From the sequence record OM386663.1: DNA of 64,000 bases; one strand, given 5' to 3'. A program made the position numbers and the translations under genes. The notes beneath the pieces were generated by a model. That model did not search any database. It was not told the DNA's origin and saw only the letters and a list, made by a program, of their open reading frames with translations. Shown one piece after another: positions 21,307-44,543 of the stretch; the first letter of the stretch is position 1; each line of letters opens with the position of its first letter. The DNA comes from Escherichia phage vB_EcoM_ESCO49.

Positions 21307-22923
21307 TCAACGTCTAAGCCCCTCATATGGGTTTCCTCTCACTAAGTCTGTGTGAACACCCATTGATGGTGGCTTGAATAATTTAACTTCATTAAGACTG
21401 TTGAAAGCATCACTGGTAGCATCCACTTGGTCATCTTTAGTTTTGCCATCACCACAAAAGCCTTCAAGCTCTTGAAAGTAAGCTTCATTCCAACTACCTC
21501 TCAAGACTTTTACAAGTCCAGCTTCAGAAGCAGCAGAAAATCCCGCAAAGCGGGTAACTTTATCTTTATTTGTTGGTTTAGCTCTTGCACGATAGCCTTT
21601 CTCGGCAAGTTTCCTGATGAGGGATGTTGCGTAGGATTTACCAGCAGCGCCTGGGTCTTGAGGGATAAAAATACCAGTTCGCTTACCGTCACTTTCAGCA
21701 GTCAAATTAATTTGTGTTTCGACTCCAGAGGGTCTATCTCTAAATCTTACTACATCAATGATATAATAGCAACCGTCTTTTTTAGATTTACCCATCTTAA
21801 CACCTGCTGTCCAGTCTGGATTAGGGTTAACCTCAGATGGTAAAGTTGCTGCTAAGTCCCATGCTCTAACATCAAATACATCTTCTGGGAGTGAATCAAC
21901 AATCTCACACCATTGTCTTTGCCAATAGTTTGAACCTTCTGCACGAGCCTTCCAGTTACCAAAACGAAGTCTTGCAACGTTTACAGGAGTGTTGTTTTCC
22001 AACTTACCACGGTACTTAGGTTCTAAGAAGTCAAGGATTGGGTTATCATCAATCGTACCAGAGATAAAGGTGTATGTTTGAGGAATCTCAAGAGGGAACA
22101 TTTCAAGAATCTTATCCCTTTCCCAATCAGAAACCATCACACCATCATTCATTACATACCAACGAATACGACCACACTTTTCAGGGTCTGGATAACCTTC
22201 TTCATCTAAGAATGGTTCTACCCAATCGTAAATAAAGTGGTCTCTATCTGGGTTCATGGAAATCTTCATGTATGAATCACCTTCAGCACCAGAACGTAGA
22301 CGGGTTTGTAGGTATGAAATCTGTGAAGCAGAGAAGTGTGTACCTTCGTCAAAGTAAATAGCTGAGTATTCAATACCCTGATGACCTTCAGCGTGCTTTT
22401 CAAGTTCTAGGTAGGTAAACTTGATAGTTGCCCCAGAAGGGAATGTGATAGTCATTTTCTGCTCGTGAGGAATCCCACCAAACTTACCAAATAGTTTCTT
22501 TGCAGCAGGCCATAAACCACCTTGTAACTGTGTTGTGTTTCGACGGAAATACACAGCATTATAGTTGGGGTCTTCAATAAATCTTAAAGAGTCCATTAAC
22601 AATGCGGCAGTCTTACCAGCACCAGCAGCACCACCATAAAGAACCAAGTCAGCATTAGTGTTTAAAAAAACCTCTTGAGAACCCGGCTGAGGGGCTACAT
22701 AGTTCTTATCAGTCATCAATTTAAAGATGAGGCGAACTTGGTCTGGTGTGTATCTTAATAAAGTCAGAATTTGAGTTGGAAGGAATTTAGAGGGGTCTTT
22801 ACCGAATGATTTAATAATTTCTTTTACTTCATCAGAAAGCCCCAACTCTCCAGCTAGGACTTTCCTAACATCTTCCACTCGCTTCTGCTTAACAGTATTT
22901 AAGTCCATTAAGCGCCTCCGCAA
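21307..22923 (-). CDS. terminase large subunit
   Basis: 538 aa; Walker A VLYGGAAGAGKTAAL; size and position. Confidence 0.8.
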   Translation of the reverse strand: MRRRLMDLNTVKQKRVEDVRKVLAGELGLSDEVKEIIKSFGKDPSKFLPTQILTLLRYTPDQVRLIFKLMTDKNYVAPQPGSQEVFLNTNADLVLYGGAAGAGKTAALLMDSLRFIEDPNYNAVYFRRNTTQLQGGLWPAAKKLFGKFGGIPHEQKMTITFPSGATIKFTYLELEKHAEGHQGIEYSAIYFDEGTHFSASQISYLQTRLRSGAEGDSYMKISMNPDRDHFIYDWVEPFLDEEGYPDPEKCGRIRWYVMNDGVMVSDWERDKILEMFPLEIPQTYTFISGTIDDNPILDFLEPKYRGKLENNTPVNVARLRFGNWKARAEGSNYWQRQWCEIVDSLPEDVFDVRAWDLAATLPSEVNPNPDWTAGVKMGKSKKDGCYYIIDVVRFRDRPSGVETQINLTAESDGKRTGIFIPQDPGAAGKSYATSLIRKLAEKGYRARAKPTNKDKVTRFAGFSAASEAGLVKVLRGSWNEAYFQELEGFCGDGKTKDDQVDATSDAFNSLNEVKLFKPPSMGVHTDLVRGNPYEGLRR

Positions 22924-23192: not shown

Positions 23193-23355
23193 GGAGAAAC
23201 CACAATGTACGTCAGAGACATACTGTATAAGTCTTCCTATAAAGTATAACTCTGTAAAAAAGCCCTGTCTAAAAATACTCTTCGGTAGCGAAAGGAAGAA
23301 TACTTATAGCAGGGCATTATTATTATTTTAATTGAGAGAGAGTAAAATAACTTGG

Positions 23356-23428
23356 AGAATCCGAAGGGACTTGAACCCTTATAAACCTGTTTTGCAGACA
23401 GGCACATATCCATTTCTGTCACGGATTC
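23356..23428 (-). tRNA. tRNA-Cys (GCA)
   Basis: acceptor 7 bp, T-arm AAGGG-TTCAAGT-CCCTT, anticodon stem CCTGT/ACAGG, loop CUGCAAA. Confidence 0.7.
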
Positions 23429-23436
23429 GAAATTGG

Positions 23437-23525
23437 GGGAAGATACCAGACTTGAACTGGTACACCGATTTCTCAGCTACTGGCAGTTTAGCAAACTGCT
23501 CCCTTACCTTTAGGGTTAATCTTCC
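23437..23525 (-). tRNA. tRNA-Ser (GCU), long variable arm
   Basis: 89 nt; T-arm, anticodon stem GCAGT/ACTGC, plus-strand loop TTAGCAA. Confidence 0.65.
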
Positions 23526-23526
23526 A

Positions 23527-24309
23527 TTATCTCTGTAATGCGCTCTTCATTTCTGGTGTTGCAATAGTATCAATCACACCAGTTTTACAAGCATCATCAA
23601 ACCAGTCTGGTAAGATACCTGCTAAGAACCCATTGATATTCGTTTTAAGGTACTCTGCAATAAGGGCAGCTTCTTCTTCAATCATCTGCACAACTTCATC
23701 TGCATAAGCTGTAATCTTTGAGATACCTTCATTAATCTTACTAACAGCCTGATTAGCTAAATCAGAAACAGTCTCAAGACCCTTATCAATAGCGTCTTGT
23801 AAGTCACTTAACACACCATTAACACTGTCTAGTGTGCTGTTAATCATGTCAATAGCTTGCTGACCATACTCTGTAGCAACACCCATAATACCACTAAATG
23901 GTGTACAACCAACTTGTTCTCCTGCTGCACCCATAACATTGGAGTATCCCTTTGCTACCTGCATACGTGATGAAAACTCATCAATAGACTTTTGACCGTA
24001 GTCTGTTAGGGTCTTAGTAGTTGCTGTAGTGCTTGTAAGGCTTGTTGTAAAGCTGTTTAGAAGGACTGTTGTGAGTCCAGCAGCAACAAGCTTCTCCTTC
24101 ATTGTAGGGTCTGTTACAGAGCTAATAGAGCTTACAAGTGATGTAGAGGCAGCTACGGTTCCACCGAGAACTGCTGCACCAGTAATAAGTGGGTTAGAAA
24201 ACCCTCTACCGGTTTTTAAGAGATTAAAAATCTCCTTACCTTGTTCTGTCATCTCTTTCATTAAGCACCTTTGAAATTGGTACTCCATATCGGATTCGAA
24301 CCGATACAT
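23527..24309 (-). CDS. hypothetical protein
   Basis: 260 aa; Ser/Thr/Ala-rich middle; embedded in tRNA region. Confidence 0.4.
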   Translation of the reverse strand: MYRFESDMEYQFQRCLMKEMTEQGKEIFNLLKTGRGFSNPLITGAAVLGGTVAASTSLVSSISSVTDPTMKEKLVAAGLTTVLLNSFTTSLTSTTATTKTLTDYGQKSIDEFSSRMQVAKGYSNVMGAAGEQVGCTPFSGIMGVATEYGQQAIDMINSTLDSVNGVLSDLQDAIDKGLETVSDLANQAVSKINEGISKITAYADEVVQMIEEEAALIAEYLKTNINGFLAGILPDWFDDACKTGVIDTIATPEMKSALQR

Positions 24310-24356
24310 AACACAGATTTTAAGTCTGGCCTCTCTGCCAATTGGAGTAATGGAGC
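24281..24356 (-). tRNA. tRNA, anticodon read as UAA (Leu-type), standard length
   Basis: acceptor GCUCCAU/AUGGAGU (G1-U72), T-arm ATCGG-TTCGAAT-CCGAT, 4 bp anticodon stem, loop CUUAAAA, A73. Confidence 0.5.
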
Positions 24357-24362
24357 ATTGGC

Positions 24363-24434
24363 TGGGGATGTTGGAATTGAACCAACTTCTTCGATTTCAA
24401 AGACCGAGGTTTTAACCTTGTAAACTAATCCCCT
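24363..24434 (-). tRNA. tRNA-Gln (UUG)
   Basis: T-loop TTCAATT; anticodon stem with one G-U; plus-strand loop TTCAAAG. Confidence 0.6.
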
Positions 24435-24442
24435 TTAAATCT

Positions 24443-25000
24443 TTACTTTCTCAGTGGATGAATAAAGAATGCCAACATAACTCTTTCCCTTGAGAATGCT
24501 CTTTCTTCTGGGACAACACTTTTTAGTTTCCATCCAATATAAATTCTCCAGTAAAACTGTTTACCAAAGATTTTAATTGATGGGATAAAAGCGAATAATC
24601 CCCAAGCATTGCTATTCCACATTAGGAGATAACCAGTCTGATTATCTTCAGGGTCAGAACTTACGCTGATATTACCTTTCCACTTAGTAACATCTTTTAC
24701 ATCTCTTCCTAATACATGGTAAGAGAAGTTATAAGCTTTGTTTCTCCAGAGCCATCCAACTCTCTGCATGTAGACACCCAGCTTACCAATCTTTCTAATC
24801 TTAGCCCATCTTTTAACGTGGCCTTCATCACCATCAATCGGGTTGTCATAGGTCTCCATCCATCTGAATCCAAAAGGTAGATGCCCTTTCTTCTCACTGT
24901 AGAATGGAACCACGAAAGGTGCTAAGATGACTGCTAGGGTTGCTGCAAATGGTTCTAGTAAAGCTAGGAAAATCCATGAAGCATACTTCAAATATCTCAT
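24443..25000 (-). CDS. hypothetical membrane protein
   Basis: 185 aa; hydrophobic N-terminus; between tRNA genes. Confidence 0.4.
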   Translation of the reverse strand: MRYLKYASWIFLALLEPFAATLAVILAPFVVPFYSEKKGHLPFGFRWMETYDNPIDGDEGHVKRWAKIRKIGKLGVYMQRVGWLWRNKAYNFSYHVLGRDVKDVTKWKGNISVSSDPEDNQTGYLLMWNSNAWGLFAFIPSIKIFGKQFYWRIYIGWKLKSVVPEERAFSRERVMLAFFIHPLRK

Positions 25001-25022
25001 CTAAATAGCCTCTTAAAATTGG

Positions 25023-25098
25023 TGTTCCAAGACGGATTCGAACCGTCACTAATACAAGGTTTGAGCTTGCATCCTCTGCCAATTGGGATACTGGAACA
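25023..25098 (-). tRNA. tRNA, anticodon read as CAA (Leu-type), standard length
   Basis: T-arm GACGG-TTCGAAT-CCGTC perfect; acceptor 7 bp with one G-U; loop CUCAAAC; A73. Confidence 0.5.
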
Positions 25099-25101
25099 TG
25101 G

Positions 25102-25173
25102 TACTCACTAAAGGACTTGAACCTTTTTCTTCATCTTGTAAGGGTGATGTTTTACCATATAAACTAAGCGAGT
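25102..25173 (-). tRNA. tRNA-Val (UAC), tentative
   Basis: T-arm AAAGG-TTCAAGT-CCTTT; D-arm GUUU-AUAUGGUA-AAAC; anticodon stem with one mismatch; plus loop TTGTAAG. Confidence 0.5.
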
Positions 25174-25271
25174 GTGAAAGAGGTCTGAAGTTGTGCCGCT
25201 AACTCAACTCCGTGGAATTTGTTACGGTCTTCAGTTGACACCAGCGGTCTTTCACTTGACCTCTGAATTGG

Positions 25272-25345
25272 TGCTGCTCACAGGACTCGAACCTGCATTT
25301 CCATCCTTACAAGGGATGTGTAATAGCCAATTATACGAAAGCAGC
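25272..25345 (-). tRNA. tRNA-Thr (UGU)
   Basis: perfect anticodon stem CATCC/GGATG, loop CUUGUAA; T-arm and acceptor present. Confidence 0.7.
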
Positions 25346-25354
25346 ATTATTTGG

Positions 25355-25426
25355 AGCATCCAGAGGGAATCGAACCCTCAACCTCAGTTTGGAAGACTGT
25401 AATTTTCCCGTTTAAACTATGGATGC
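25355..25426 (-). tRNA. tRNA-Gly (UCC)
   Basis: T-arm GAGGG-TTCGATT-CCCTC; acceptor perfect; loop CUUCCAA. Confidence 0.6.
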
Positions 25427-25435
25427 ACTAATTGG

Positions 25436-25508
25436 TGGAGAAGCAGGGAATTGAACCCTGTACTTAAGTTTGCAAAACTTATGTTTTAACCATGTAAACT
25501 ACATCCCC
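25436..25508 (-). tRNA. tRNA-Ala (UGC)
   Basis: anticodon stem TAAGT/ACTTA, loop UUUGCAA; acceptor GGGGAUG with G3-U70. Confidence 0.6.
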
Positions 25509-25517
25509 AATGTTTGG

Positions 25518-25590
25518 TACAGGTGGAGGGAATTGAACCCATCGTCTTACTGATTAAGAGTCAGCCGCATAACCATTTTGCTACACCTGC
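25518..25590 (-). tRNA. tRNA-Lys (CUU)
   Basis: plus loop TTAAGAG; acceptor 7 bp; T-loop TTCAATT with short GGG/CCC stem. Confidence 0.55.
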
Positions 25591-25600
25591 ATTAATTTGG

Positions 25601-25674
25601 TACACCTAGAGAGATTCGAACTCACACTGAGCAGATTCTAAGTCTGCTGCCTCTACCAGTTGGGCTATAGGTGC
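25601..25674 (-). tRNA. tRNA, anticodon read as UAG (Leu-type), standard length
   Basis: perfect anticodon stem GCAGA/TCTGC, loop CUUAGAA; acceptor 7 bp (G1-U72); D-loop with GG; A73; 5 nt variable loop. Confidence 0.55.
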
Positions 25675-25750
25675 ATTAAACCTTTTTAGAGAACTTCTAA
25701 GAACCTAAGCAACAAGGTTCCACAACAAGCCGTAATAACCTTAGAAGCCC

Positions 25751-25773
25751 TCTAAAAAGACCTAAAAAGGTCT
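25751..25773 (-). terminator. weak terminator-like hairpin (AGACC-n6-GGTCT plus U-run)
   Basis: 5 bp stem followed by UUUUAG on minus RNA. Confidence 0.3.
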
Positions 25774-25930
25774 TTGCATAGTCTTGTTTAATCCGGTGAC
25801 TAGAACCTTTGGAGAGCTTGATATTATCTCTTCTCCGTGACACCTGCTAGGTGCTTTATGAGTGTGTACGACAATACACGCGGGATACCAAAGCAACACC
25901 CTAATGAAGCTTGGCTTTAAATCTTATTAG

Positions 25931-26018
25931 GCGGTAAGTAAAGGAGTCGAACCCTCACCGTATCTCTACAGTGGCAACTGTTTTCAAGACAGTTTGGCTA
26001 CCATTAGCCGCTACCTAC
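25931..26018 (-). tRNA. tRNA-Ser (UGA), long variable arm
   Basis: 88 nt; anticodon stem AACTGT/ACAGTT 6 bp, plus loop TTTCAAG; acceptor 7 bp incl. one G-U. Confidence 0.55.
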
Positions 26019-26034
26019 CCCTAATAAGACTTTG

Positions 26035-26114
26035 GCATGGGACGGAGGAGTTGAACCCCTTTGAAACGGTGTTGGAAGCCGTTGCTCATGCCTTAGAGTC
26101 TTAACATCGTCCCA
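26035..26114 (-). tRNA. tRNA-like gene, identity unresolved (aberrant core)
   Basis: perfect 7 bp acceptor ATGGGAC/GTCCCAT, encoded CCA, T-loop TTCAACT; internal stem AACGG/CCGTT with 9 nt loop CUUCCAACA; extra nucleotides before D-arm. Confidence 0.4.
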
Positions 26115-26261
26115 TACTATAATTCGAAGCTTACCGTATTATCTCAACACTGTAAAGCCCCTTCTCAGATTATTTACATGTTCTGGAAAACATGAGATAC
26201 AGACCACCTCCCTACAGGAAGACCCGCTTAGGTCGTCTAAGTAATCTGCTAACTAAATTGG

Positions 26262-26340
26262 TCGAGGCGGCAGGACTCGAACCCGCATACTCCACTTACT
26301 CGGTTAACGTCTGTTTAGAAGACAGATGAGATACGCCCCG
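26262..26340 (-). tRNA. tRNA-like gene, identity unresolved (anticodon-like loop CUUCUAA, Arg-UCU-like, displaced)
   Basis: acceptor CGGGGCG/CGCCUCG all paired, T-arm GCAGG-TTCGAGT-CCCGC; perfect TCTGT/ACAGA hairpin sits where D-arm is expected. Confidence 0.35.
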
Positions 26341-26680
26341 TAATTATCTTTAAAGACTCTCTTAGAAAGCCCTTAAAGATGCCCACCTTATTAATCATAC
26401 CGTGGGCTAGTACGCCAAATTCTTTGATGAGGGATTGGAAGACCTCACTGGTGTTTAGCCTATCAAGCTACTGCCAGAAAAACATTGTCGTTTGCATTTA
26501 TTTTAAATTTGCAAAATAGACGCTACGCAACGAAAACTATTCAGAATATGTACAACAAATTTCCCCACATTGTGTTACGTCTAACGCTCATGTATTGGTG
26601 TTTGAATTATACATATTATGAAGTATTTTAGTTACTATAAAGTGGTCACATCTCAATGTCAACAACTTTATTGAAATTGG

Positions 26681-26753
26681 TACTGGTAGGTGGAATCGAA
26701 CCACCGACGTTCCCTTATCAGGGGAGTGTTATAACCTTCTTAACTATACCAGC
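26681..26753 (-). tRNA. tRNA-Ile (GAU)
   Basis: T-arm GGTGG-TTCGATT-CCACC perfect; plus loop TTATCAG. Confidence 0.6.
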
Positions 26754-26757
26754 TTGG

Positions 26758-26831
26758 AGGTTCAGATGGGAATCGAACCCACATTCATAGGGCTTATGAG
26801 ACCCTTGCATTACCTTATCTGCGACTGAACC
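26758..26831 (-). tRNA. tRNA with CAU anticodon (Met or Ile2)
   Basis: perfect acceptor GGTTCAG/CTGAACC; plus loop TTATGAG. Confidence 0.55.
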
Positions 26832-26838
26832 ATTTTGG

Positions 26839-37121: not shown

Positions 37122-37670
37122 ATGGAAAAAGATAACTTAAAAGAAGTTGAAGGTAACTACCTAGTCCTTGACTGGAGTGATATTCGAGAAGCATTATCCA
37201 AAGAAAGCCTTGACATACTGGAGCAGCTTGTCTTCTCAGTACGACATATCAGAGAAGTTAGGAATGGTAAAGAGCCACTTGAAGGAATCTTTGTAGAGAA
37301 GTCTTATCCGTTCTATGAAGACACTTTACAGAAAGTTAAAATGTACTTTAAACAGAAGAACCGTAAAGTGGTCACTATGGTATCTCTTGGTGGGCAGAGT
37401 ATGTCTATTATGGAAGATATCAATCCTAAGAGACCAAGTAAGGGTGTCTGTATAAAAATCACAGGGCATGAAGAGTATATCTCAATTGATGATTTTAGTG
37501 CACTCTGTAATGGTTCTGCTGTCTTTAATGGGTTTCACTATGATATCCGAGTGTACCCAATCAAGGGAGATGCTGTTATGATGCAGATATTTGATATCAA
37601 TGGTGGATTTACTCATTTTTATCAGACAACCAAGTCATCATTGAAGACAGTTTTAGAAAGTCTGATTTAA
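37122..37670 (+). CDS. hypothetical protein
   Basis: start placed at MEKDNLKEVEG to avoid overlap with upstream gene; start uncertain. Confidence 0.35.
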   Translation: MEKDNLKEVEGNYLVLDWSDIREALSKESLDILEQLVFSVRHIREVRNGKEPLEGIFVEKSYPFYEDTLQKVKMYFKQKNRKVVTMVSLGGQSMSIMEDINPKRPSKGVCIKITGHEEYISIDDFSALCNGSAVFNGFHYDIRVYPIKGDAVMMQIFDINGGFTHFYQTTKSSLKTVLESLI

Positions 37671-37680
37671 AATATCTTAA

Positions 37681-37708
37681 GAGCCTCCTTAATTGGGGGC
37701 TTTTTATT
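37681..37708 (+). terminator. terminator-like hairpin
   Basis: AGCCTCC/GGGGGCT stem followed by TTTTTATT, end of plus-strand block. Confidence 0.5.
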
Positions 37709-37710
37709 GA

Positions 37711-39360
37711 GTGAAAATTACGAAATTTATAATTTTTATAAAATTTTATCGGTTGTCCCAACCTCTGGGTCACCATCATACGTGAATAAAATATCTATCC
37801 TTCTTAACAACCTTCTTAATCTTACTCTCTATATAGTTATATAGTACTATATAGTATCTTAGTAACTATCTAGTGGTCTTAATAGCCTCTCTGTATAACC
37901 CTTCTAACAAGCCTTCTAACAAGCCCTCTAAACACTCTTCTAACAAGCCTTCTTAATAACCTATACAATCACCTTAACCATCCCTCTATACCCTCTTAGA
38001 AGCTCCTATACACCTCTTAATCTCTATGTTACCTATGATACCCTCTATAGGTGTTCACTAGGCACTACTAAGCCTCTATATAGACTGTTTTAACAAACTT
38101 AACAGGAATATCTTTACAGACCTTATCTCACAAGGCCTAACACGGTACTAACAAGGTATCTTATAAACCTGTTTATGCCTGTATTTTAGAAAGACTGTAT
38201 AGGTAATTATTCAGAATTTTAATTTTTTTTATAAAATAGGACTGTCAAGTCATTTTTTAGGGTCTTTGAAGGAACTCAAAAATATCTGTCTAGGATGTAT
38301 ATCTGCTTGGTAGCCCTTAACAGCCCTGTAACATCCCCTTTGCAAAATTTTAAAATATCATTAACAAACTCTTAACAACTCTCTCAAGCTCTTAACATCT
38401 CTCCAAAGGTCTTAACAAATTCTTAATAGTTTTAACAAGAGGGTAACAAATTTCTAACAAGTGCTGAAAAGGCTTTACAGAATCTTAACAGATGATTAAC
38501 AAGAGCTAACAAGTTAATTTTTAAGGGTTATTTTGTTAAGATAATTAACAAGTTCCTAACAAGTATTTAACCTTTTTAACAAGCTATTAACATGGTCACT
38601 ACTCTTTTCTTATCGTTCCCTTTCTCTCTTAGTGATTCTCTAAACATACCTTTTAAAAGCTCTCTATAGCTCCTTGTAAGCTCTTTTAAGCCTCTTCCTA
38701 GTAATTACACCCCAACTATACAGACACCTCTTTATAGAGCTTTACAGGAGCTTTTAAGGCTATGTCAAAGACTCTTACAAGGCTTTTACATGGTATTAAC
38801 AGAGATTTAACAAGGGGCTAACAAGTTGCTAACAAGCATAACTATGTAGGGATTGTTAAGAATTTGTTAAAAAGATGTTAAAGGGGCTAGCATTTACGTA
38901 ACTTTTACGTAACTTTTGAGTAACTTTATAGCCCCTATAACATACTTTTAAGACACTATCAAGCCCTTTTTAGTAGTTCACGAGATACTAGTCAGCCTAT
39001 AAGCTTATACCCTTATAAGGTTCTTTTAAGCCTCTAGAAAGCTTTATAAAGGGCTTTTAAGGGTGAGGTAATGCAATCCCTTAAGTTATATTGATAAGGC
39101 TGTTATAGGGCTTTATAGGGCGTTTTAGGGGTTGCCCTTCCCTTTCGGGTTATGGGCTTGTATTTAAGGGAAAGATTAGTTGATTTGATAAAAGGCTATA
39201 GAATAAGCTATAGAGTTATTGCTTTTTAAGGTATGGGATAGAGTCTATCGAACCAGTGGGGAGATTCTGGAAAGGTGAGGGAAAGGGTTGTATAAGGATT
39301 CGATAGACGTAAAAAAGCCCCATTTAAGGGGCTGTATAAAGGTATCTGGGGCTATTTAGC
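37711..39360. repeat. 1.65 kb ORF-free, G-poor region with at least 14 exact TAACAAG iterons plus CTATAG-rich and ACGTAACTTTT repeats; candidate origin or regulatory array
   Basis: no ORF of 60 aa or more on either strand; motif counted by eye (3 near 37905-37950, 1 near 38147, 7 in 38430-38580, 3 in 38800-38850). Confidence 0.6.
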
Positions 39361-39373
39361 CCCGCTGCGTCGA

Positions 39374-39622
39374 TTAGTTGTAACCTTGTTTGCTGTAGTA
39401 CAGAGAGATAATCAAGTCACCCCAATAATGATAGTGATGCTCATCGTTTAGTGCCTCTTTTACGGCATCTTTCCAAAAGTCATCAGTTGGGTTATAGTCT
39501 GGGATAACTTGCTTGATAACTGTCTTCACTAAGGAAAAGCATTCATCAGTTCCACCGATATCAAATTTAACATCCAGAGTATAACAGCCATAAGCGTTTA
39601 CAGTTGCGCGGATAGTTGCCAT
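39374..39622 (-). CDS. hypothetical early protein
   Basis: 82 aa from MATIRATVNA; start preceded by cassette RBS CTGGAGAATC. Confidence 0.45.
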   Translation of the reverse strand: MATIRATVNAYGCYTLDVKFDIGGTDECFSLVKTVIKQVIPDYNPTDDFWKDAVKEALNDEHHYHYWGDLIISLYYSKQGYN

Positions 39623-39716
39623 TTTTAGATTCTCCAGTTTAGGAAGTAGTTTAAGGACTTTATTTAGTGGGGAGGTCATACCCTCCCCGTTGATTGACAA
39701 TTTACAGATTTTTGAT
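39623..39716 (-). promoter_or_regulatory. early promoter/hairpin/RBS cassette, type A
   Basis: minus strand: TTGACG-N17-TAAATT, hairpin GGGGAGG-n7-CCTCCCC, RBS GGAGA, ATG. Confidence 0.55.
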
Positions 39717-40232
39717 TGTATCGTCAATGTCTTTTTCAATATCTTTTAAAGTTTTTTCTAAGTTCTTGATATTGAAAGATAAGCCCTCTCCCAATGTCTT
39801 AGAGTAAACATCAGGGCGCAAGTCATGCAGTTCGATTTCTTCCACTTCAAAGAGACTAACCAGTTCACCGCTTACATTGTAAGCCATTGAAACAGTATTT
39901 ACAGGGGCTTTGTAAAACTTGTTCAACGACTTGATAGACCGTTCATAAGCCATTTTATAACCGTTTAAAAGGTTTTTAACGTGATTGCGAACGTTTTTAC
40001 ACTCATCTAAGTAAATCCCTAAGAATAACGGCAATAACTCCGCTATAGCTTGCATAAAGTGAGAGACCACAACGGTTGCAACATTACGACGATGAACGTA
40101 ATAAGCCCCTTTTCCTGATTTAGTGATAGTTGCAAAGTGTACACCATTGCAGCGAAATTCGTAGGTATCTTTAACAGGTTTAGACATTACAGCATTTGAA
40201 CGAATGAAGTTGATAGCTTTGAACTTGTTCAT
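39702..40232 (-). CDS. hypothetical early protein
   Basis: 177 aa from MNKFKAINF; ORF-track N-terminus MTSPLNKVL is read-through of the cassette. Confidence 0.45.
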   Translation of the reverse strand: MNKFKAINFIRSNAVMSKPVKDTYEFRCNGVHFATITKSGKGAYYVHRRNVATVVVSHFMQAIAELLPLFLGIYLDECKNVRNHVKNLLNGYKMAYERSIKSLNKFYKAPVNTVSMAYNVSGELVSLFEVEEIELHDLRPDVYSKTLGEGLSFNIKNLEKTLKDIEKDIDDTIKNL

Positions 40233-40320
40233 TTTGAATCTCCAGTTTAGGACTTTATTTAGCGGGGAGGTCATCCCTCCCGTTGATTAGTACTTTACTT
40301 GTTTTGATAGCTGATTGCAA
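40233..40320 (-). promoter_or_regulatory. early promoter/hairpin/RBS cassette, type A variant
   Basis: TTGCAA-N17-TAAAGT, hairpin GGGAGGG-n5-CCTCCCC, RBS. Confidence 0.5.
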
Positions 40321-40448
40321 GCAATTTTTTAAGTTTATCTATAAAGAGTCTTTTAAGTGAATCCCTTTTAGATAAACCCCCTCGAACAAATCTACCAATG
40401 TCAAGGGGTGTTGTCAATACTTTTTGAAAGTTTTTTGTAAGTTATTGA

Positions 40449-40790
40449 TTAACTGATAAATATTTTTTCAGGCTTTACATAGCTGATACGTTGGATTTTT
40501 AGTAGGTCATTCCAGATTAATGCGGCAATATGAGAATAGCCGGATTCACGTAGAAGCTTCATTGTTTTACTTCTTGTTTCAAATCGGTTTACGTAGTACT
40601 CACTATTTAAAACCGTTTTATTGCCTTCATTGTCCACATGGATAATCTGCATTACTTGAAAGGGGCTTACATCCTCGCCTTTATTCCATTGTTCAAAGTA
40701 TTTTAGGCACTGCATAGGTGACATCTTATCACTAACCTGCGTTGACCAAGATGCGCCAGCTTTATCAGCAATTACGGTTACATAAGCCAT
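40449..40790 (-). CDS. hypothetical early protein
   Basis: 113 aa. Confidence 0.45.
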   Translation of the reverse strand: MAYVTVIADKAGASWSTQVSDKMSPMQCLKYFEQWNKGEDVSPFQVMQIIHVDNEGNKTVLNSEYYVNRFETRSKTMKLLRESGYSHIAALIWNDLLKIQRISYVKPEKIFIS

Positions 40791-40882
40791 TTTTGAATCT
40801 CCAGTTTAGGGTTTTATTTAGTGGGGAGGTCATACCCTCCCCGTTGATTGACAATTTACAGATTTTTATCCGGCTTGTCTAG
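40791..40882 (-). promoter_or_regulatory. early promoter/hairpin/RBS cassette, type A
   Basis: TAGACA-N17-TAAATT, same hairpin and RBS as 39623-39716. Confidence 0.55.
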
Positions 40883-41112
40883 TCTTTTTCAATGATAATT
40901 TCATCTTGGCCGTCAACACTGTCAAAATAGATTCCGTCGTCATCTTCTGTCTTAAAGTAGCATTTTATATCATCACTTGCGGGATAGTCTTGTCTTGCTA
41001 TCTGGCAAACTTGAATAGCATTTTCTTTACTTCCTGAAAACTCCTCAAGCCCTTTAAAGTCGCATGAATACCCATTACAGGTGGAAAGGATGAGATAAAC
41101 GGTTATAAGCAT
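40879..41112 (-). CDS. hypothetical secreted protein or lipoprotein
   Basis: 77 aa; N-terminal hydrophobic segment ending ILSTC; acidic C-terminus; preceded by a different hairpin GGCCC-n5-GGGCC. Confidence 0.4.
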   Translation of the reverse strand: MLITVYLILSTCNGYSCDFKGLEEFSGSKENAIQVCQIARQDYPASDDIKCYFKTEDDDGIYFDSVDGQDEIIIEKD

Positions 41113-41175
41113 GATTTAAGCCCCCTAAATGGCCCTGTACGGGCCTTAAGTTGGAAATTGGTGTCTTTGTATGGT

Positions 41176-41739
41176 TTAGCCTAAAAAGTCGCTCATATTG
41201 CGTTCTGTGAGGCTGTTGGTAATTTTGTCCAGTAGGTCACAATACACAGAGCTATCACCGCTATTCTGTACAATTTTTGCAATACTCAACAAATCATCGT
41301 CAATATAGCCCAAATTGCGGTTAGTTGTATCAGGTACAAAGAAAGGCGCATACATCGCACTAAAATTCGCGGAGTGGATACCAACAATCCAATTTTTATC
41401 AAAGTAACCTGTAAAGCTGGCGATGTCGCTCATATTGTCACAAGAATAATCGTCCTCAAGTTCTTCCTCTGGGATATCCATCTCAATTACAATCACTTCC
41501 TGCGTTTCCATTTGGAAAGCTGCCGTAATAAGCCCCGACTCTAAAGCATTTTGAATGCAGCGTTCACGGATGTAAGAAGCTTCTTCATCTTCCAGGCATT
41601 CCGTTTTGATAATCTTATCCATCGGGTAAACGTAAAAACAATCATCCATGTAAGAGCAGTTCCAGATACCCTCCGGCTTGTCGCCACCTTTAAGCAGGTT
41701 TACAAAGTTTTTCAGAGTAGTGCCGTGATAGCATTTCAT
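41176..41739 (-). CDS. hypothetical early protein
   Basis: 187 aa; acidic. Confidence 0.45.
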   Translation of the reverse strand: MKCYHGTTLKNFVNLLKGGDKPEGIWNCSYMDDCFYVYPMDKIIKTECLEDEEASYIRERCIQNALESGLITAAFQMETQEVIVIEMDIPEEELEDDYSCDNMSDIASFTGYFDKNWIVGIHSANFSAMYAPFFVPDTTNRNLGYIDDDLLSIAKIVQNSGDSSVYCDLLDKITNSLTERNMSDFLG

Positions 41740-41838
41740 TTTTGAATCTCCAGTTTAGGATTTAGTGGTAAAGCTCTTTATCTGGGGCTTACTATATCGA
41801 ACTATAAGCCCCTTGTAAAGTACTTTATTTGTTATTTT
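41740..41838 (-). promoter_or_regulatory. early promoter/hairpin/RBS cassette, type B
   Basis: TTTACA-N17-TATAGT with hairpin GGGGCTTA-n13-TAAGCCCC spanning spacer and -10; shared 3' part CCACTAAATCCTAAACTGGAGATTCAAAA-ATG. Confidence 0.55.
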
Positions 41839-42028
41839 TTACAACTTTTAAAACTGCAAGATAGCCTAAGCAATAGGAATCACCAAAGAGAGTCCTACCC
41901 ATGAAAGAATCTTCTTTAATATCCTTTGCAGTGACAGTTTTTTCTACGCCGTGGGAAAGGACTACATCACCAACTTTAATGTCTTTGATGTGTGTAGTTT
42001 CAATGGTTAAACCGTTAATAATAGCCAT
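41825..42028 (-). CDS. hypothetical early protein
   Basis: 67 aa. Confidence 0.4.
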   Translation of the reverse strand: MAIINGLTIETTHIKDIKVGDVVLSHGVEKTVTAKDIKEDSFMGRTLFGDSYCLGYLAVLKVVKNNK

Positions 42029-42122
42029 TTTTGAATCTCCAGTTTAGGGTTTTATTTAGTGGGGAGGTCATACCCTCCCCGTTGATGTGTAATTTAATCT
42101 ATCTAAAAACCAGTGTCAACAA
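42029..42122 (-). promoter_or_regulatory. early promoter/hairpin/RBS cassette, type A
   Basis: TTGACA-N17-TAAATT then hairpin GGGGAGG-n7-CCTCCCC then RBS. Confidence 0.6.
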
Positions 42123-42127
42123 AATTT

Positions 42128-42532
42128 TTAGAGTTCTGCATAAATTGCATCACAGACATCACGAAAATCGTGATTTGTCAAATTACGCTGTAACCAAGTG
42201 GCGAAAAAATCAGCGATTGCATAATTGGCATCATACTCGACGGATAGCCATACTTTAACAGCAAATCGAAACATCTTTAAATCAAGCTCTTTATTCATTA
42301 CCTTTGATTTGCCTAACATGTCGGACATTTCATATTGTGCGCCGTCTAGCGTGATACCTGCTGCAACGTCAGCCAATGAACTTTTTACGTTTTTAACGTC
42401 TAAAATAACGCTTTGAATCTTTCCGATAATGTTGTGCAATGTTTCATCTGGCGCTGCTGATGTCATCACATTAATCCGGTTGACGGTCAAACGTGCTTTT
42501 AAGATAGATAATTCACGGTTATTAATAGCCAT
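42128..42532 (-). CDS. hypothetical early protein
   Basis: 134 aa. Confidence 0.45.
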   Translation of the reverse strand: MAINNRELSILKARLTVNRINVMTSAAPDETLHNIIGKIQSVILDVKNVKSSLADVAAGITLDGAQYEMSDMLGKSKVMNKELDLKMFRFAVKVWLSVEYDANYAIADFFATWLQRNLTNHDFRDVCDAIYAEL

Positions 42533-42617
42533 TTTTGAATCTCCAATTTAGGATTTAGTGGTAAAGCTCTTTATCTGGGGCTTACTATATCGAACTATAA
42601 GCCCCTTGTAAAGTACT
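42533..42617 (-). promoter_or_regulatory. early promoter/hairpin/RBS cassette, type B
   Basis: near-identical to 41740-41838. Confidence 0.55.
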
Positions 42618-42890
42618 TTAAACTAAATGCAGCTTTTTGCCTTTTACCATGATGTAACTTGATGCGCTATTGCTACAAACATCCTGATAAATTCTGCGCA
42701 AACGCCCTTTATAGTGTACTTTCCAGCTGGTTGGAATCTTTTTACCGTATCCCGTAGCAGTTTTTTGGAATCCTGCAAGTTGCCAATTCAAAATATGCTG
42801 TTCAGCTTGTAAATCCTCAAAGTGCATTATGCCGTTCACATAGTGGCGTAGGGTTACGTTTAAGGTGCGACCGTTGTTAGTAGTATACAT
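42618..42890 (-). CDS. hypothetical early protein
   Basis: 90 aa from MYTTNNGRTL; ORF-track extension is cassette read-through. Confidence 0.45.
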   Translation of the reverse strand: MYTTNNGRTLNVTLRHYVNGIMHFEDLQAEQHILNWQLAGFQKTATGYGKKIPTSWKVHYKGRLRRIYQDVCSNSASSYIMVKGKKLHLV

Positions 42891-42978
42891 TTTTGAATCT
42901 CCTAGTTTAAGGGTTTTATTTAGTGGGGGGTTATCGCCCCCGTTGATGTGCAATTTAATCTATCTAAAAACCAGTGTC
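42891..42978 (-). promoter_or_regulatory. early promoter/hairpin/RBS cassette, type A variant
   Basis: TTGACA-N17-TAAATT; hairpin GGGGGCGATAACCCCCC. Confidence 0.55.
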
Positions 42979-43309
42979 AAGCATTTTGTTTTCGTTTGCT
43001 CATTTCTTGAGCAATTACAGCGTAGTAGTCTTTTAAGTCACTGGTATTTAAAGCATTTATCAGGGAATTATAATCATCAACTAACTGAAAATCATCTTTG
43101 AAGATGTCACTAATCTGGTATGTTCTCGCTTTAAATCTGAAGCTCATCTCTAGCCGCTTTATTTGCTCATCACTTAAACGCTCCAGGAAGCTCATTACAA
43201 GGCTATTATTAACCTGTTGTGTGATAGCCTTATCTGCTAAATTATAGGCTTTATATGCCTTATACAGCGCGAAAATGGCTATAATGGCGGTGACGCCGGT
43301 CATTAACAT
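42977..43309 (-). CDS. hypothetical membrane protein
   Basis: 110 aa; N-terminal TM segment; start overlaps stop of a 26-codon upstream micro-ORF. Confidence 0.45.
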   Translation of the reverse strand: MLMTGVTAIIAIFALYKAYKAYNLADKAITQQVNNSLVMSFLERLSDEQIKRLEMSFRFKARTYQISDIFKDDFQLVDDYNSLINALNTSDLKDYYAVIAQEMSKRKQNA

Positions 43310-43383
43310 GGTGTTTCCTCTTTGAAATCAATTTTATTAAGTGACTTGCTTAGATTTTCACGGACCTTATTTGATAATTTCAT

Positions 43384-43470
43384 TTTTTGAATCTCCAGTT
43401 TAGGATTTAGTGGTAAAGCTCTTTATCTGGGGCTATCTTATCAGCTTGATAACCCCGTGTAAAAAGGTCT
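43384..43470 (-). promoter_or_regulatory. early promoter/hairpin/RBS cassette, type B variant
   Basis: TTTACA-N17-TAAGAT; cassette ATG opens the 26-codon micro-ORF. Confidence 0.5.
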
Positions 43471-43472
43471 AT

Positions 43473-43985
43473 TTAGTCCTTAAAGATATTCATCACTGAA
43501 TCTTTTAATGCTTCCAATTGCTCCAGTACTTCAGATTCTGCGCCTGAATTGCTCACTTCCTCTTTTAGTCTATCCTCTAAATCAACGCCGTCACTATAAC
43601 ACCAATCAAAAGCATAACCAAGATAAAAACTTTCTAAAACCGTTTTGCCGTTTACATCTACAACTTTCGCGGCAAGGATGTATTCTGAAGCCTCTAAATC
43701 TCTTTCTAGTTCTTCCTGTAAGCTGACATAAGCCTCTTTTGATGGATTTTCCCGGCCCTGTTTTGCATAGTCACTTGAAAGCTGTTTAAGGCTATAATTT
43801 AAAGGGATTGCATATTTAAAGGCATTATGACGATAGTTGGGGTTTTTAATAGTCACGCCGCCTTGATGGTCGTCTGTAAACTCCCAATCAGCAAGATTAT
43901 GGCTTGACTCGTAGCAGTTTACCGCTTCATAGATGATTGAAAATTTTTCTTTTACAACTTCAAAAGTAGCGTCTACAGTTTTCAT
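43473..43985 (-). CDS. hypothetical early protein
   Basis: 170 aa; acidic C-terminal half. Confidence 0.45.
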   Translation of the reverse strand: MKTVDATFEVVKEKFSIIYEAVNCYESSHNLADWEFTDDHQGGVTIKNPNYRHNAFKYAIPLNYSLKQLSSDYAKQGRENPSKEAYVSLQEELERDLEASEYILAAKVVDVNGKTVLESFYLGYAFDWCYSDGVDLEDRLKEEVSNSGAESEVLEQLEALKDSVMNIFKD

Positions 43986-44071
43986 TTTAGAATCTCCAGT
44001 TTAGGGGTTTAGTGATAAAGCTCTTTATCTGGGGCTTACTATATCGAACTATAAGCCCCTTGTAAAGTACT
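43986..44071 (-). promoter_or_regulatory. early promoter/hairpin/RBS cassette, type B
   Basis: same module as 41740-41838. Confidence 0.55.
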
Positions 44072-44455
44072 TTATTTGTTAATTTTGAAAATTGTCACAT
44101 AGCCATCGCTCCCGATAATTTGAGATACTCCAGCTTTTTCTACTGAATAGCCCATATTCTCAAGATGATAAACAGCATCATCATAACCATATGCGCCGCC
44201 CTGATAACGTCTCTTATCACATCTTATCAGGTTTTTACCACGTCCTGCAAGTGCATTTAGTACGGCTTTTTCACTTGAAAGCGTACCATCTAACATTGTT
44301 GCCGTGTAGTGGTTGATTCTGTTCCCGTTAATATCATACTTAAAATTGAACGAGTGAACAACAACTATTTTATCGTTAAATTTTTCATCAAGCGCCTTCT
44401 CTAATACATTACGGAAATTTTCTTTATTGATGAATTTAGGTGCACGATATGCCAT
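44072..44455 (-). CDS. hypothetical early protein
   Basis: 127 aa. Confidence 0.45.
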   Translation of the reverse strand: MAYRAPKFINKENFRNVLEKALDEKFNDKIVVVHSFNFKYDINGNRINHYTATMLDGTLSSEKAVLNALAGRGKNLIRCDKRRYQGGAYGYDDAVYHLENMGYSVEKAGVSQIIGSDGYVTIFKINK

Positions 44456-44543
44456 TTTTGAATCTCCTAGTTTAAGGTTGTTGATAAAGCTCTTTATCTG
44501 GGGCTTAAGATATCAACTTTTAAGCCCCTTGTAAAGTACTTTA
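44456..44543 (-). promoter_or_regulatory. early promoter/hairpin/RBS cassette, type B variant
   Basis: TTTACA-N17-TATCTT; hairpin GGGGCTTAA-n11-TTAAGCCCC. Confidence 0.5.

Follow-up and report, generated by a model that had tools for sequence, protein, structure and literature searches.

Direct terminal repeats (DTRs) are already known in the genus Felixounavirus, in existence as well as in position, from two papers (PMC4837284, PMC8303462) and from annotations in GenBank. For example, a 608-bp DTR was mapped in UAB_Phi87 by Bal31 digestion, to which two restriction fragments were sensitive, and by run-off sequencing (PMC4837284). In phage vB_EcoM-Pr103Blw, PhageTerm assigned DTR packaging with repeats of 581 bp (PMC8303462). 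The passages of these papers on the ends give the repeat and its length, without TAACA arrays, phasing or inverted boundary boxes. The element considered here is the corresponding one of Escherichia phage vB_EcoM_ESCO49, for which 64,000 nucleotides of record OM386663.1 (the window, whose numbering is used throughout) were analysed. It is a DTR of 579 bp (38309-38887), placed by aligned exact DTRs of relatives, by record ends and by the mapped repeat of UAB_Phi87, and it is packed with copies of a short TTAACA-type motif. The best overall explanation is that this is a genome-end region whose motif array probably serves the packaging machinery.

Several better-studied phages provide a background for such an arrangement. 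T7 reportedly has a terminal repeat of 160 bp with arrays of heptamer-type repeats in and beside it, and its duplication is said to be modelled as hairpin-primed. The pac site of P1 contains seven hexamer elements, four and three on either side of the cleavage region, that are bound by PacA. The R sites of lambda cosB and the pacL and pacR boxes of SPP1 are likewise binding arrays for the small terminase, helically phased and located by the cut site.

The position of the DTR follows from a number of related records. Exact repeats occur at both record ends of Pr103Blw (581 bp, the two copies identical), CRP22 (579 bp) and SeKF_63 (613 bp), and the DTRs of these three independent records all align exactly to 38309 and 38887. 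In the records of I14.1, H12, ZX4221, NBEco005, Ro111lw and ECP2307 one end coincides with the position aligned to 38887, and the record of pEP20 starts at the one aligned to 38309; the aligned boundary positions are the start or end of at least 10 records. For UAB_Phi87 the sequence in the published Figure S1 was compared, the record JN225449.1 not having been opened at its termini. In the window orientation that repeat runs from TTGGTAGCCCTTAACA to AAGAAAATGTT, equivalent to about 38307-38879, so that its ends are 2 nt from the left boundary and 8 nt from the right one. The Felixounavirus DTRs of UAB_Phi87 and Pr103Blw are the same element as the one described here, with 84-92% identity, boundaries within 0-8 nt and the same convergent non-coding setting. 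The boundaries are at conserved positions across 15 related genomes, and a boundary is also shared with another genus. In Erwinia phage M7 (Kolesnikvirus), the two ends of the record carry an exact repeat of 444 bp, in a homologous convergent non-coding region, and the inner boundary of this repeat is at the same conserved box as the left boundary of the DTR. An end overlap in the record of Citrobacter phage BSwM KMM2 (Mooglevirus, OP902295.1) was rejected as a DTR; it is only 64 bp long, lies elsewhere (aligned to 38321-38384) and was taken to be an assembly overlap, and that record was probably opened inside the repeat.

By homology to these mapped relatives, the intergenic region at 37671-39373 is almost certainly the genome-end region, the junction of both ends in a concatemer or in a collapsed assembly. 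The three records with exact end repeats indicate that the same sequence would be present at both virion ends, and the linear genome, in the window orientation, would start at 38309 and end at 38887. The DTR is seen once in the window because the assembly was collapsed or circularly opened elsewhere. Unique non-coding sequence of 638 bp (37671-38308) precedes the right-end repeat and another 486 bp (38888-39373) follows the left-end repeat. Transcription of the genes next to either end runs outwards, in the direction of that end, and stops at a terminator.

A first-pass annotation, made from the letters of the window, had already drawn attention to the heptamer TAACAAG in this region, counting at least 14 exact copies. 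There are 14, all on the plus strand between 37905 and 38836, and the three clusters lie where they had been reported; the other 62 kb of the window have 13 copies on both strands. The enrichment holds under the shuffling control that had been proposed, since 1000 dinucleotide-preserving shuffles of the region gave a mean of 0.20 copies (standard deviation 0.44) and a maximum of 3. The core TAACA was observed 29 times against 2.9 expected (shuffle maximum 9), and motif density peaks at 17 copies per 300 bp, with at most 6 elsewhere in the window. C or T stands before all 14 heptamers and after 10 of the 14, in agreement with the reported form, mostly [CT]TAACAAG[CT]. Variants with one mismatch are also present, although more of them than the eight or so reported: 13 on the plus strand. 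Information is limited to Y-TAACA-(A)-(G), with spacer bases that look random and spacers that are unrelated in sequence. The true motif is thus YTAACA(A)(G), shorter than the heptamer, with a TTAACA or TAACA core that is present in both orientations. In this respect the first-pass annotation, which took the heptamer as the repeat unit and did not recognise the terminal repeat, has to be corrected.

The DTR holds 24 copies of the motif, 20 forward and 4 inverted, in two blocks. Block A (38317-38594, plus strand) has 16 forward copies of YTAACA(A)(G) with gaps mostly of 11 or 20 bp, and one inverted copy at 38534. It is separated by a motif-free spacer of 200 bp from block B, whose forward part (38796-38836, plus strand) has four copies exactly 11 bp apart and whose inverted part (38852-38883, minus strand) has three copies, also 11 bp apart, abutting the right DTR boundary. 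Among the gaps between neighbouring forward copies, 11 of 28 are exactly 11 bp and others are 20-22, 31-33 or 42-44 bp; with gaps of 11 bp and its near-multiples, adjacent copies face the same side of the helix. Repeats are also found in the unique sequence on both sides of the DTR. To the left are 12-bp tandem units (TTCTAACAAGCC; 37904-37947, plus strand), which vary in copy number and are absent in Mooglevirus, and four further copies of TAACA (38091-38155, plus strand). Immediately outside the right boundary are three 11-bp units (TACGTAACTTT; 38888-38927, plus strand) whose number varies among genomes. The direct repeats of ACGTAACTTTT mentioned in the first-pass annotation are real and are part of these units.

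Each boundary of the DTR is embedded in a conserved box that contains one copy of the motif. The left box (38294-38322; halves GATGTATATCTGCTT and GGTAGCCCTTAACA) is nearly invariant in the 15 genomes, which represent two genera, and its outer half, TGTATATCTRC, is conserved at the DTR boundary of M7 too. The right box (38875-38905; halves ATGTTAAAGGGGC and TAGCATTTACGTAACTTT) is almost invariant in the same genomes and is the inverted counterpart of the left one. Alignment of the left boundary with the reverse complement of the right gave a score of 54.5, compared to 0.8 ± 10.4 (maximum 42.5) for 300 shuffles (z about 5). Both boxes share TGC..TAGCCC(C)TT(T)AACA and an outer element ending in ACTCAAAA, and because the shared boxes are inverted, both virion 5' ends read into a GCCC-TTAACA word. 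Copies of TAGCCC(C)T(A)TAACA are located at 38311 (plus strand), 38884 (minus) and 38929 (plus). The third of these, TAGCCCCTATAACAT at 38929-38943, is 42 bp outside the right boundary and oriented as the left-boundary copy. It takes part in an inverted repeat that straddles the right boundary (38856-38962), with arms of 34 nt at 38856-38889 and 38929-38962 that contain the inner and outer boundary words. As single-stranded DNA this repeat folds at -18.2 kcal/mol (z = -4.1; none of 200 shuffles folds as well). Folding of the left boundary gave no structure. The hairpin was set aside as an element of the mechanism, not being conserved in all relatives.

Comparison with homologous phages, which had been proposed as a check, uncovered the DTR and also showed that the motif copies are conserved at homologous positions. 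In all 15 genomes, whose DTR identities go down to 76%, the DTR contains 19-22 copies in forward orientation and 3-5 that are inverted. Of the motif 5-mers, 71-100% are intact at the homologous positions of each relative, compared to 31-63% of the other 5-mers of the DTR, and retention of these non-motif 5-mers equals the neutral expectation (identity to the fifth power). The copies thus appear to be under purifying selection, and they behave as would selected protein-binding sites, the binding itself being a prediction from the sequences. More distant relatives retain the array. In Kolesnikvirus, a stretch of about 100 bp at the left boundary is all that blastn can still align; even so, the 444-bp repeat of M7 is filled with copies of TCTTAACA, which are forward on its left side and inverted on its right, the order also found in block B of the window. 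The homologous non-coding regions of Suspvirus SUSP2 and Pectobacterium phage Arno18 are likewise rich in TTAACA, which is the most frequent word there. Given its occurrence in M7, SUSP2 and Arno18, the TTAACA core is subfamily-wide; the array persists in four genera and one unclassified member of the Ounavirinae, and only in Felixounavirus, Mooglevirus and Suspvirus is the core extended by AAG. The Kolesnikvirus genomes of M7 and phiEa21-4 have another abundant word, CTTAGAAG, with 8-9 copies, all on one strand, in the unique portion of the corresponding region; the window has a single copy, at 37995.

The motif arrays are predicted, with middling confidence, to be a binding platform for the packaging (terminase) machinery. 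This reading is suggested by the arrays being centred on the DTR, by the motif copy in each cut box and by the inversion of motif orientation towards the right cut; a clustered short motif is found at the presumed cleavage sites, in 24 copies within the DTR, with one in each boundary box and three inverted ones abutting the right cut. It is suggested as well by precedent, since many short, helically phased sites beside a terminase cut resemble lambda cosB, SPP1 pac and P1 pac. In the mechanism that we propose, an oligomeric DNA-binding component of the packaging machinery, likely a small-terminase-like protein, would bind the array and so mark the concatemer junction. The bound component would then position the large terminase on the two mutually inverted boundary boxes for cutting, and the single DTR copy of the concatemer would be duplicated as in T7-type phages. 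The large terminase gene (21307-22923, minus strand; phrog_979, with Terminase_6N and Terminase_6C domains) is of the T4 type, and its product would be expected to make the cuts at both boundaries of the DTR. We infer that a protein binds the motif, which protein this is, and that its role is in packaging rather than in replication, recombination or end protection.

The locus resembles T7 in having a short exact DTR in non-coding DNA, arrays of short words in and beside the DTR, and a palindrome by one boundary. On the other hand, the present DTR is longer by a factor of about 3.6 and its motif bears no relation to that of T7, the large terminase belongs to the T4-like Terminase_6 type, and the flanking genes run towards the ends, whereas in T7 they run away from the left end. 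Relatives, moreover, do not all keep the palindrome. As in P1 pac, copies of a 6-8-bp word are grouped at the cut, here four forward and three inverted ones within 90 bp of the right boundary. However, P1 fills its heads by the headful mechanism after a single pac cut, and Dam sites are part of its elements; the present locus has about 24 copies of a motif that lacks GATC, with two precise cuts at a distance of 579 bp. Lambda cosB and SPP1 also have repeated short sites, helically phased, next to the cut, where an oligomeric small terminase reads them; by comparison the array here is far larger, and its binding by a protein is a prediction. A match to the IHF consensus, WATCAANNNNTTR, was not found within 37671-39373, unlike in lambda cosB, although an IHF site is not universal in that family.

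A small terminase would be the natural candidate for such a DNA-binding component, and passages of the Felix O1 papers give the large terminase as the only identifiable one. The window contains a gene for a 123-aa DUF5681 protein (29370-29741, minus strand) that became a candidate small terminase and motif reader by its domain match and by its gene neighbourhood elsewhere. The protein is conserved across the Ounavirinae and has an invariant N-terminal motif, FKKGQSGNPxGRPKGSxN. In unrelated phage contigs, distant DUF5681 genes are found directly upstream of, and overlapping, large-terminase genes; in phage STGO-35-1 a member of the family is the last gene before terL. This position makes it a reasonable small-terminase candidate, and Felix O1-like phages may have their 'missing' small terminase in it; in the phage studied here, its gene is split from terL by the tRNA island. 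Searches with the protein against PDB sequences and NCBIfam gave no match. A specific pairing, in which DUF5681 would be the reader of the motif array, is put forward tentatively. Of about the same probability, and on the doubtful side, is the full proposal: the helically phased TTAACA array would be the platform of an unrecognised Ounavirinae small terminase, with DUF5681 as the candidate, and both DTR cuts would be set symmetrically by the two inverted TAGCCC-TTAACA boxes.

A number of observations weigh against a packaging platform read in this way, or against parts of it. The termini of the phage itself are placed by homology, at about 87-92% identity, and at the right end the boundary from PhageTerm and that from run-off sequencing are as much as 8 nt apart. 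Eight forward copies are outside the DTR, in the left unique part, and include the variable 12-bp cluster that Mooglevirus lacks; not every motif copy can therefore be needed. A 10.5-11-bp periodicity is not significant over the whole region, and Fourier analysis of TAA/TAG or AA/TT found it significant in no sub-segment, so that phasing is a local feature only. The right-boundary hairpin, which would fit a T7-like duplication, is weak or absent in Sf17, 3HA14, Sf14 and Alf5. For the DUF5681 protein, AlphaFold gave a low-confidence model (pLDDT 68), for which Foldseek against PDB found no structural match; beside DUF5681 genes in three unrelated contigs there are no TTAACA arrays.

The first-pass annotation had offered three candidate functions for the region: a replication origin with iterons, a binding array for a phage regulator, and a site related to packaging or injection. 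The last has gained from the analysis, as the genome ends are inside the region. In one variant of it, the terminal 580 bp or so of the incoming DNA would be coated by a protein of the phage or the host that protects the ends from exonucleases such as RecBCD, or that paces and arrests entry into the cell. There is a precedent in T5, which has a terminal non-coding region with repeats and a proposed injection stop signal. The array does lie in the sequence that forms both physical ends. According to the PhageMaP authors, the Felixounavirus Bas63 has no RecBCD inhibitor. For this group, however, there is neither a candidate protein nor a sign of stepwise ejection, and the inverted symmetry of the boundary boxes favours formation of the ends over their protection. 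As the sole explanation of the array such a function is unlikely, and it could coexist with a role in packaging.

A replication origin, with the TAACA repeats as iterons for an initiator, is similarly improbable. Many direct short repeats on one strand beside an A+T-rich tract are what is seen in the iteron origins of plasmids and lambdoid phages, and the non-coding region is strongly conserved. The most A+T-rich tract (38182-38241), which would serve as the unwinding element, reaches 83% A+T over 60 nt, compared to 65% over the whole region, and is about 70 bp outside the left boundary. Ends and origins can also coincide, as in T7, where secondary origins are tied to promoters near both genome ends. 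The units here, however, are 7-8 bp at 11-bp spacing and not iterons of 17-22 bp. No DnaA box (TTATCCACA, with up to one mismatch) was found within 37671-39373, and the flanking genes, which match only phage families of unknown function, include none with an initiator-like match. An origin would also leave unexplained why the arrays are centred on, and bounded by, the mapped termini. The term iterons in the earlier proposal implies an origin, for which specific support was not obtained. The A+T-rich tract could be an unwinding element or else an easily melted zone for duplication of the DTR.

A regulatory function, with TTAACA as a -35-like element or operator for non-coding transcripts, or as a site for titration of a regulator, has very little probability. 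TTAACA matches 5 of the 6 positions of the sigma-70 -35 hexamer, and several promoter-like matches use motif copies as their -35 element. These matches are not significantly in excess (10, compared to 5.9 ± 2.7 in shuffles), none has more than 9 of 12 positions, and both flanking operons point into the region and terminate there. An Rfam scan of 37500-39500 (E up to 1) returned only a sub-threshold match to Phe_leader at 37631-37709 (23.8 bits, with a gathering threshold of 55; E = 0.42). A structured non-coding RNA locus was likewise rejected, there being no credible Rfam family and no promoters above the shuffled level; the Phe_leader match sits on the terminator of the left gene. The idea that the array is a neutral by-product, tandem duplications made by slippage in dispensable spacer DNA, fits the variable number of 12-bp units at 37904-37947 and of 11-bp units at 38888-38927 but appears largely refuted and scarcely credible, since 71-100% of the motif 5-mers are kept while others decay at the neutral rate, the spacers between copies are unrelated, and the array is maintained in four genera and an unclassified member of the subfamily.

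Two other sequence elements are of interest in the region. Words containing CTATAG, which the first-pass annotation had noticed in its right half, are present there; their enrichment is weak, with 8 observed and 2.2 expected, and a shuffle maximum that is also 8. Three YTATATAG palindromes spaced 8-10 bp apart (37829-37854) are located in the best-conserved 50-nt block of the non-coding region (0.95 identity in 15 genomes) and may constitute a second protein-binding element beside the right genome end.

Megablast of 37600-39450 against 50,697 phage records gave matches in 256, almost all of them Felixounavirus or Mooglevirus (Ounavirinae), and in 184 of the 256 one match spans at least 80% of the query at 80-92% identity. 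By these matches the window is Felixounavirus DNA, that is, from a Felix O1-like myovirus. It also has the tRNA island typical of that group, with 19 tRNAs at 23353-27708. Directly upstream of the island is a gene for a 471-aa protein (27873-29288, minus strand; RNA-binding in PHROGs, DUF2828/DUF7788), the counterpart of gp130 of Bas63, a Ro60-like protein that the PhageMaP preprint discusses.

The intergenic region is limited by a plus-strand gene stop at 37670 and a minus-strand gene stop at 39374. The absence of any open reading frame (ORF) of 60 aa or more, recorded in the first-pass annotation, was borne out for 37671-39373, where the longest ORFs have 56, 45, 31 and 35 aa, and the region is homologous and ORF-free in the 256 phage records. 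In the 15 related genomes the homologous stretch has no ORF of 50 aa or more and the longest ORFs are not at conserved positions; conserved small ORFs were excluded by this comparison. In several GenBank records (e.g., SeKF_63, JLBYU28, Sl26) 'hypothetical proteins' of 30-45 aa have been annotated automatically in the terminal non-coding region. These show no conservation from one genome to another and are probably spurious. Conservation of the non-coding region equals or exceeds that of the flanking genes: per 50 nt, identity is 0.75-0.95 over most of it, compared to 0.75-0.77 in those genes, with one variable block (39251-39300) where it drops to 0.43. The plus strand of the region is 16.0% G and 18.8% C, with a GC skew of -0.17 over 38001-39000. 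It had been called pyrimidine-rich, which is true only to a modest degree (53% C+T).

The flip in transcription polarity at this point was confirmed. The two transcription units are convergent, and both gene blocks are closed by terminator-like hairpins, at 37685-37699 on the plus strand and 39333-39316 on the minus strand. The intrinsic terminator of the plus-strand block (37685-37709) is annotated in the same place in AYO145A, wV8 and Moogle, and that of the minus-strand cassette array (39306-39333) in AYO145A and Moogle. Within the cassette array (39631-44543) the small minus-strand genes are separated by intergenic repeats of 74-91 nt with hairpins, found at 39631, 40226, 40785 and 42023, and at 41737, 42530, 43382, 43984 and 44453. 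These are probably modules of terminator, promoter and ribosome-binding site, and they agree with direct repeats mentioned in the Felix O1 genome paper.

In the open-access literature searched, no description was found of an array of this motif or of how it is phased and conserved, nor of the inverted boundary boxes or the small-terminase candidate; there was likewise nothing on TAACAAG in phage, or on this motif under the Felixounavirus origin of replication. The motif architecture thus appears to be undescribed; as the terminal repeat itself was known for the genus, it brings refinement more than surprise.

For genomes of this group the 'empty' 1.7-kb region marks the true ends in assemblies that were collapsed or opened arbitrarily, and the invariant boundary boxes could be used to orient records without read-level analysis. 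Felix O1-like phages are widely used for typing of Salmonella and E. coli, in biocontrol and in therapy, and they are now genetically tractable through PhageMaP, whose dataset for Bas63 contains insertions at intergenic sites. Outside T7, it is poorly understood how the terminases of myoviruses with short DTRs recognise and cut two precise sites. A countable, conserved array, two symmetric cut boxes and a candidate small terminase provide a system in which this can be tested directly. If DUF5681 does read the array, the locus would offer a sequence-level model for how exact short terminal repeats are made by a large terminase of the T4 type.

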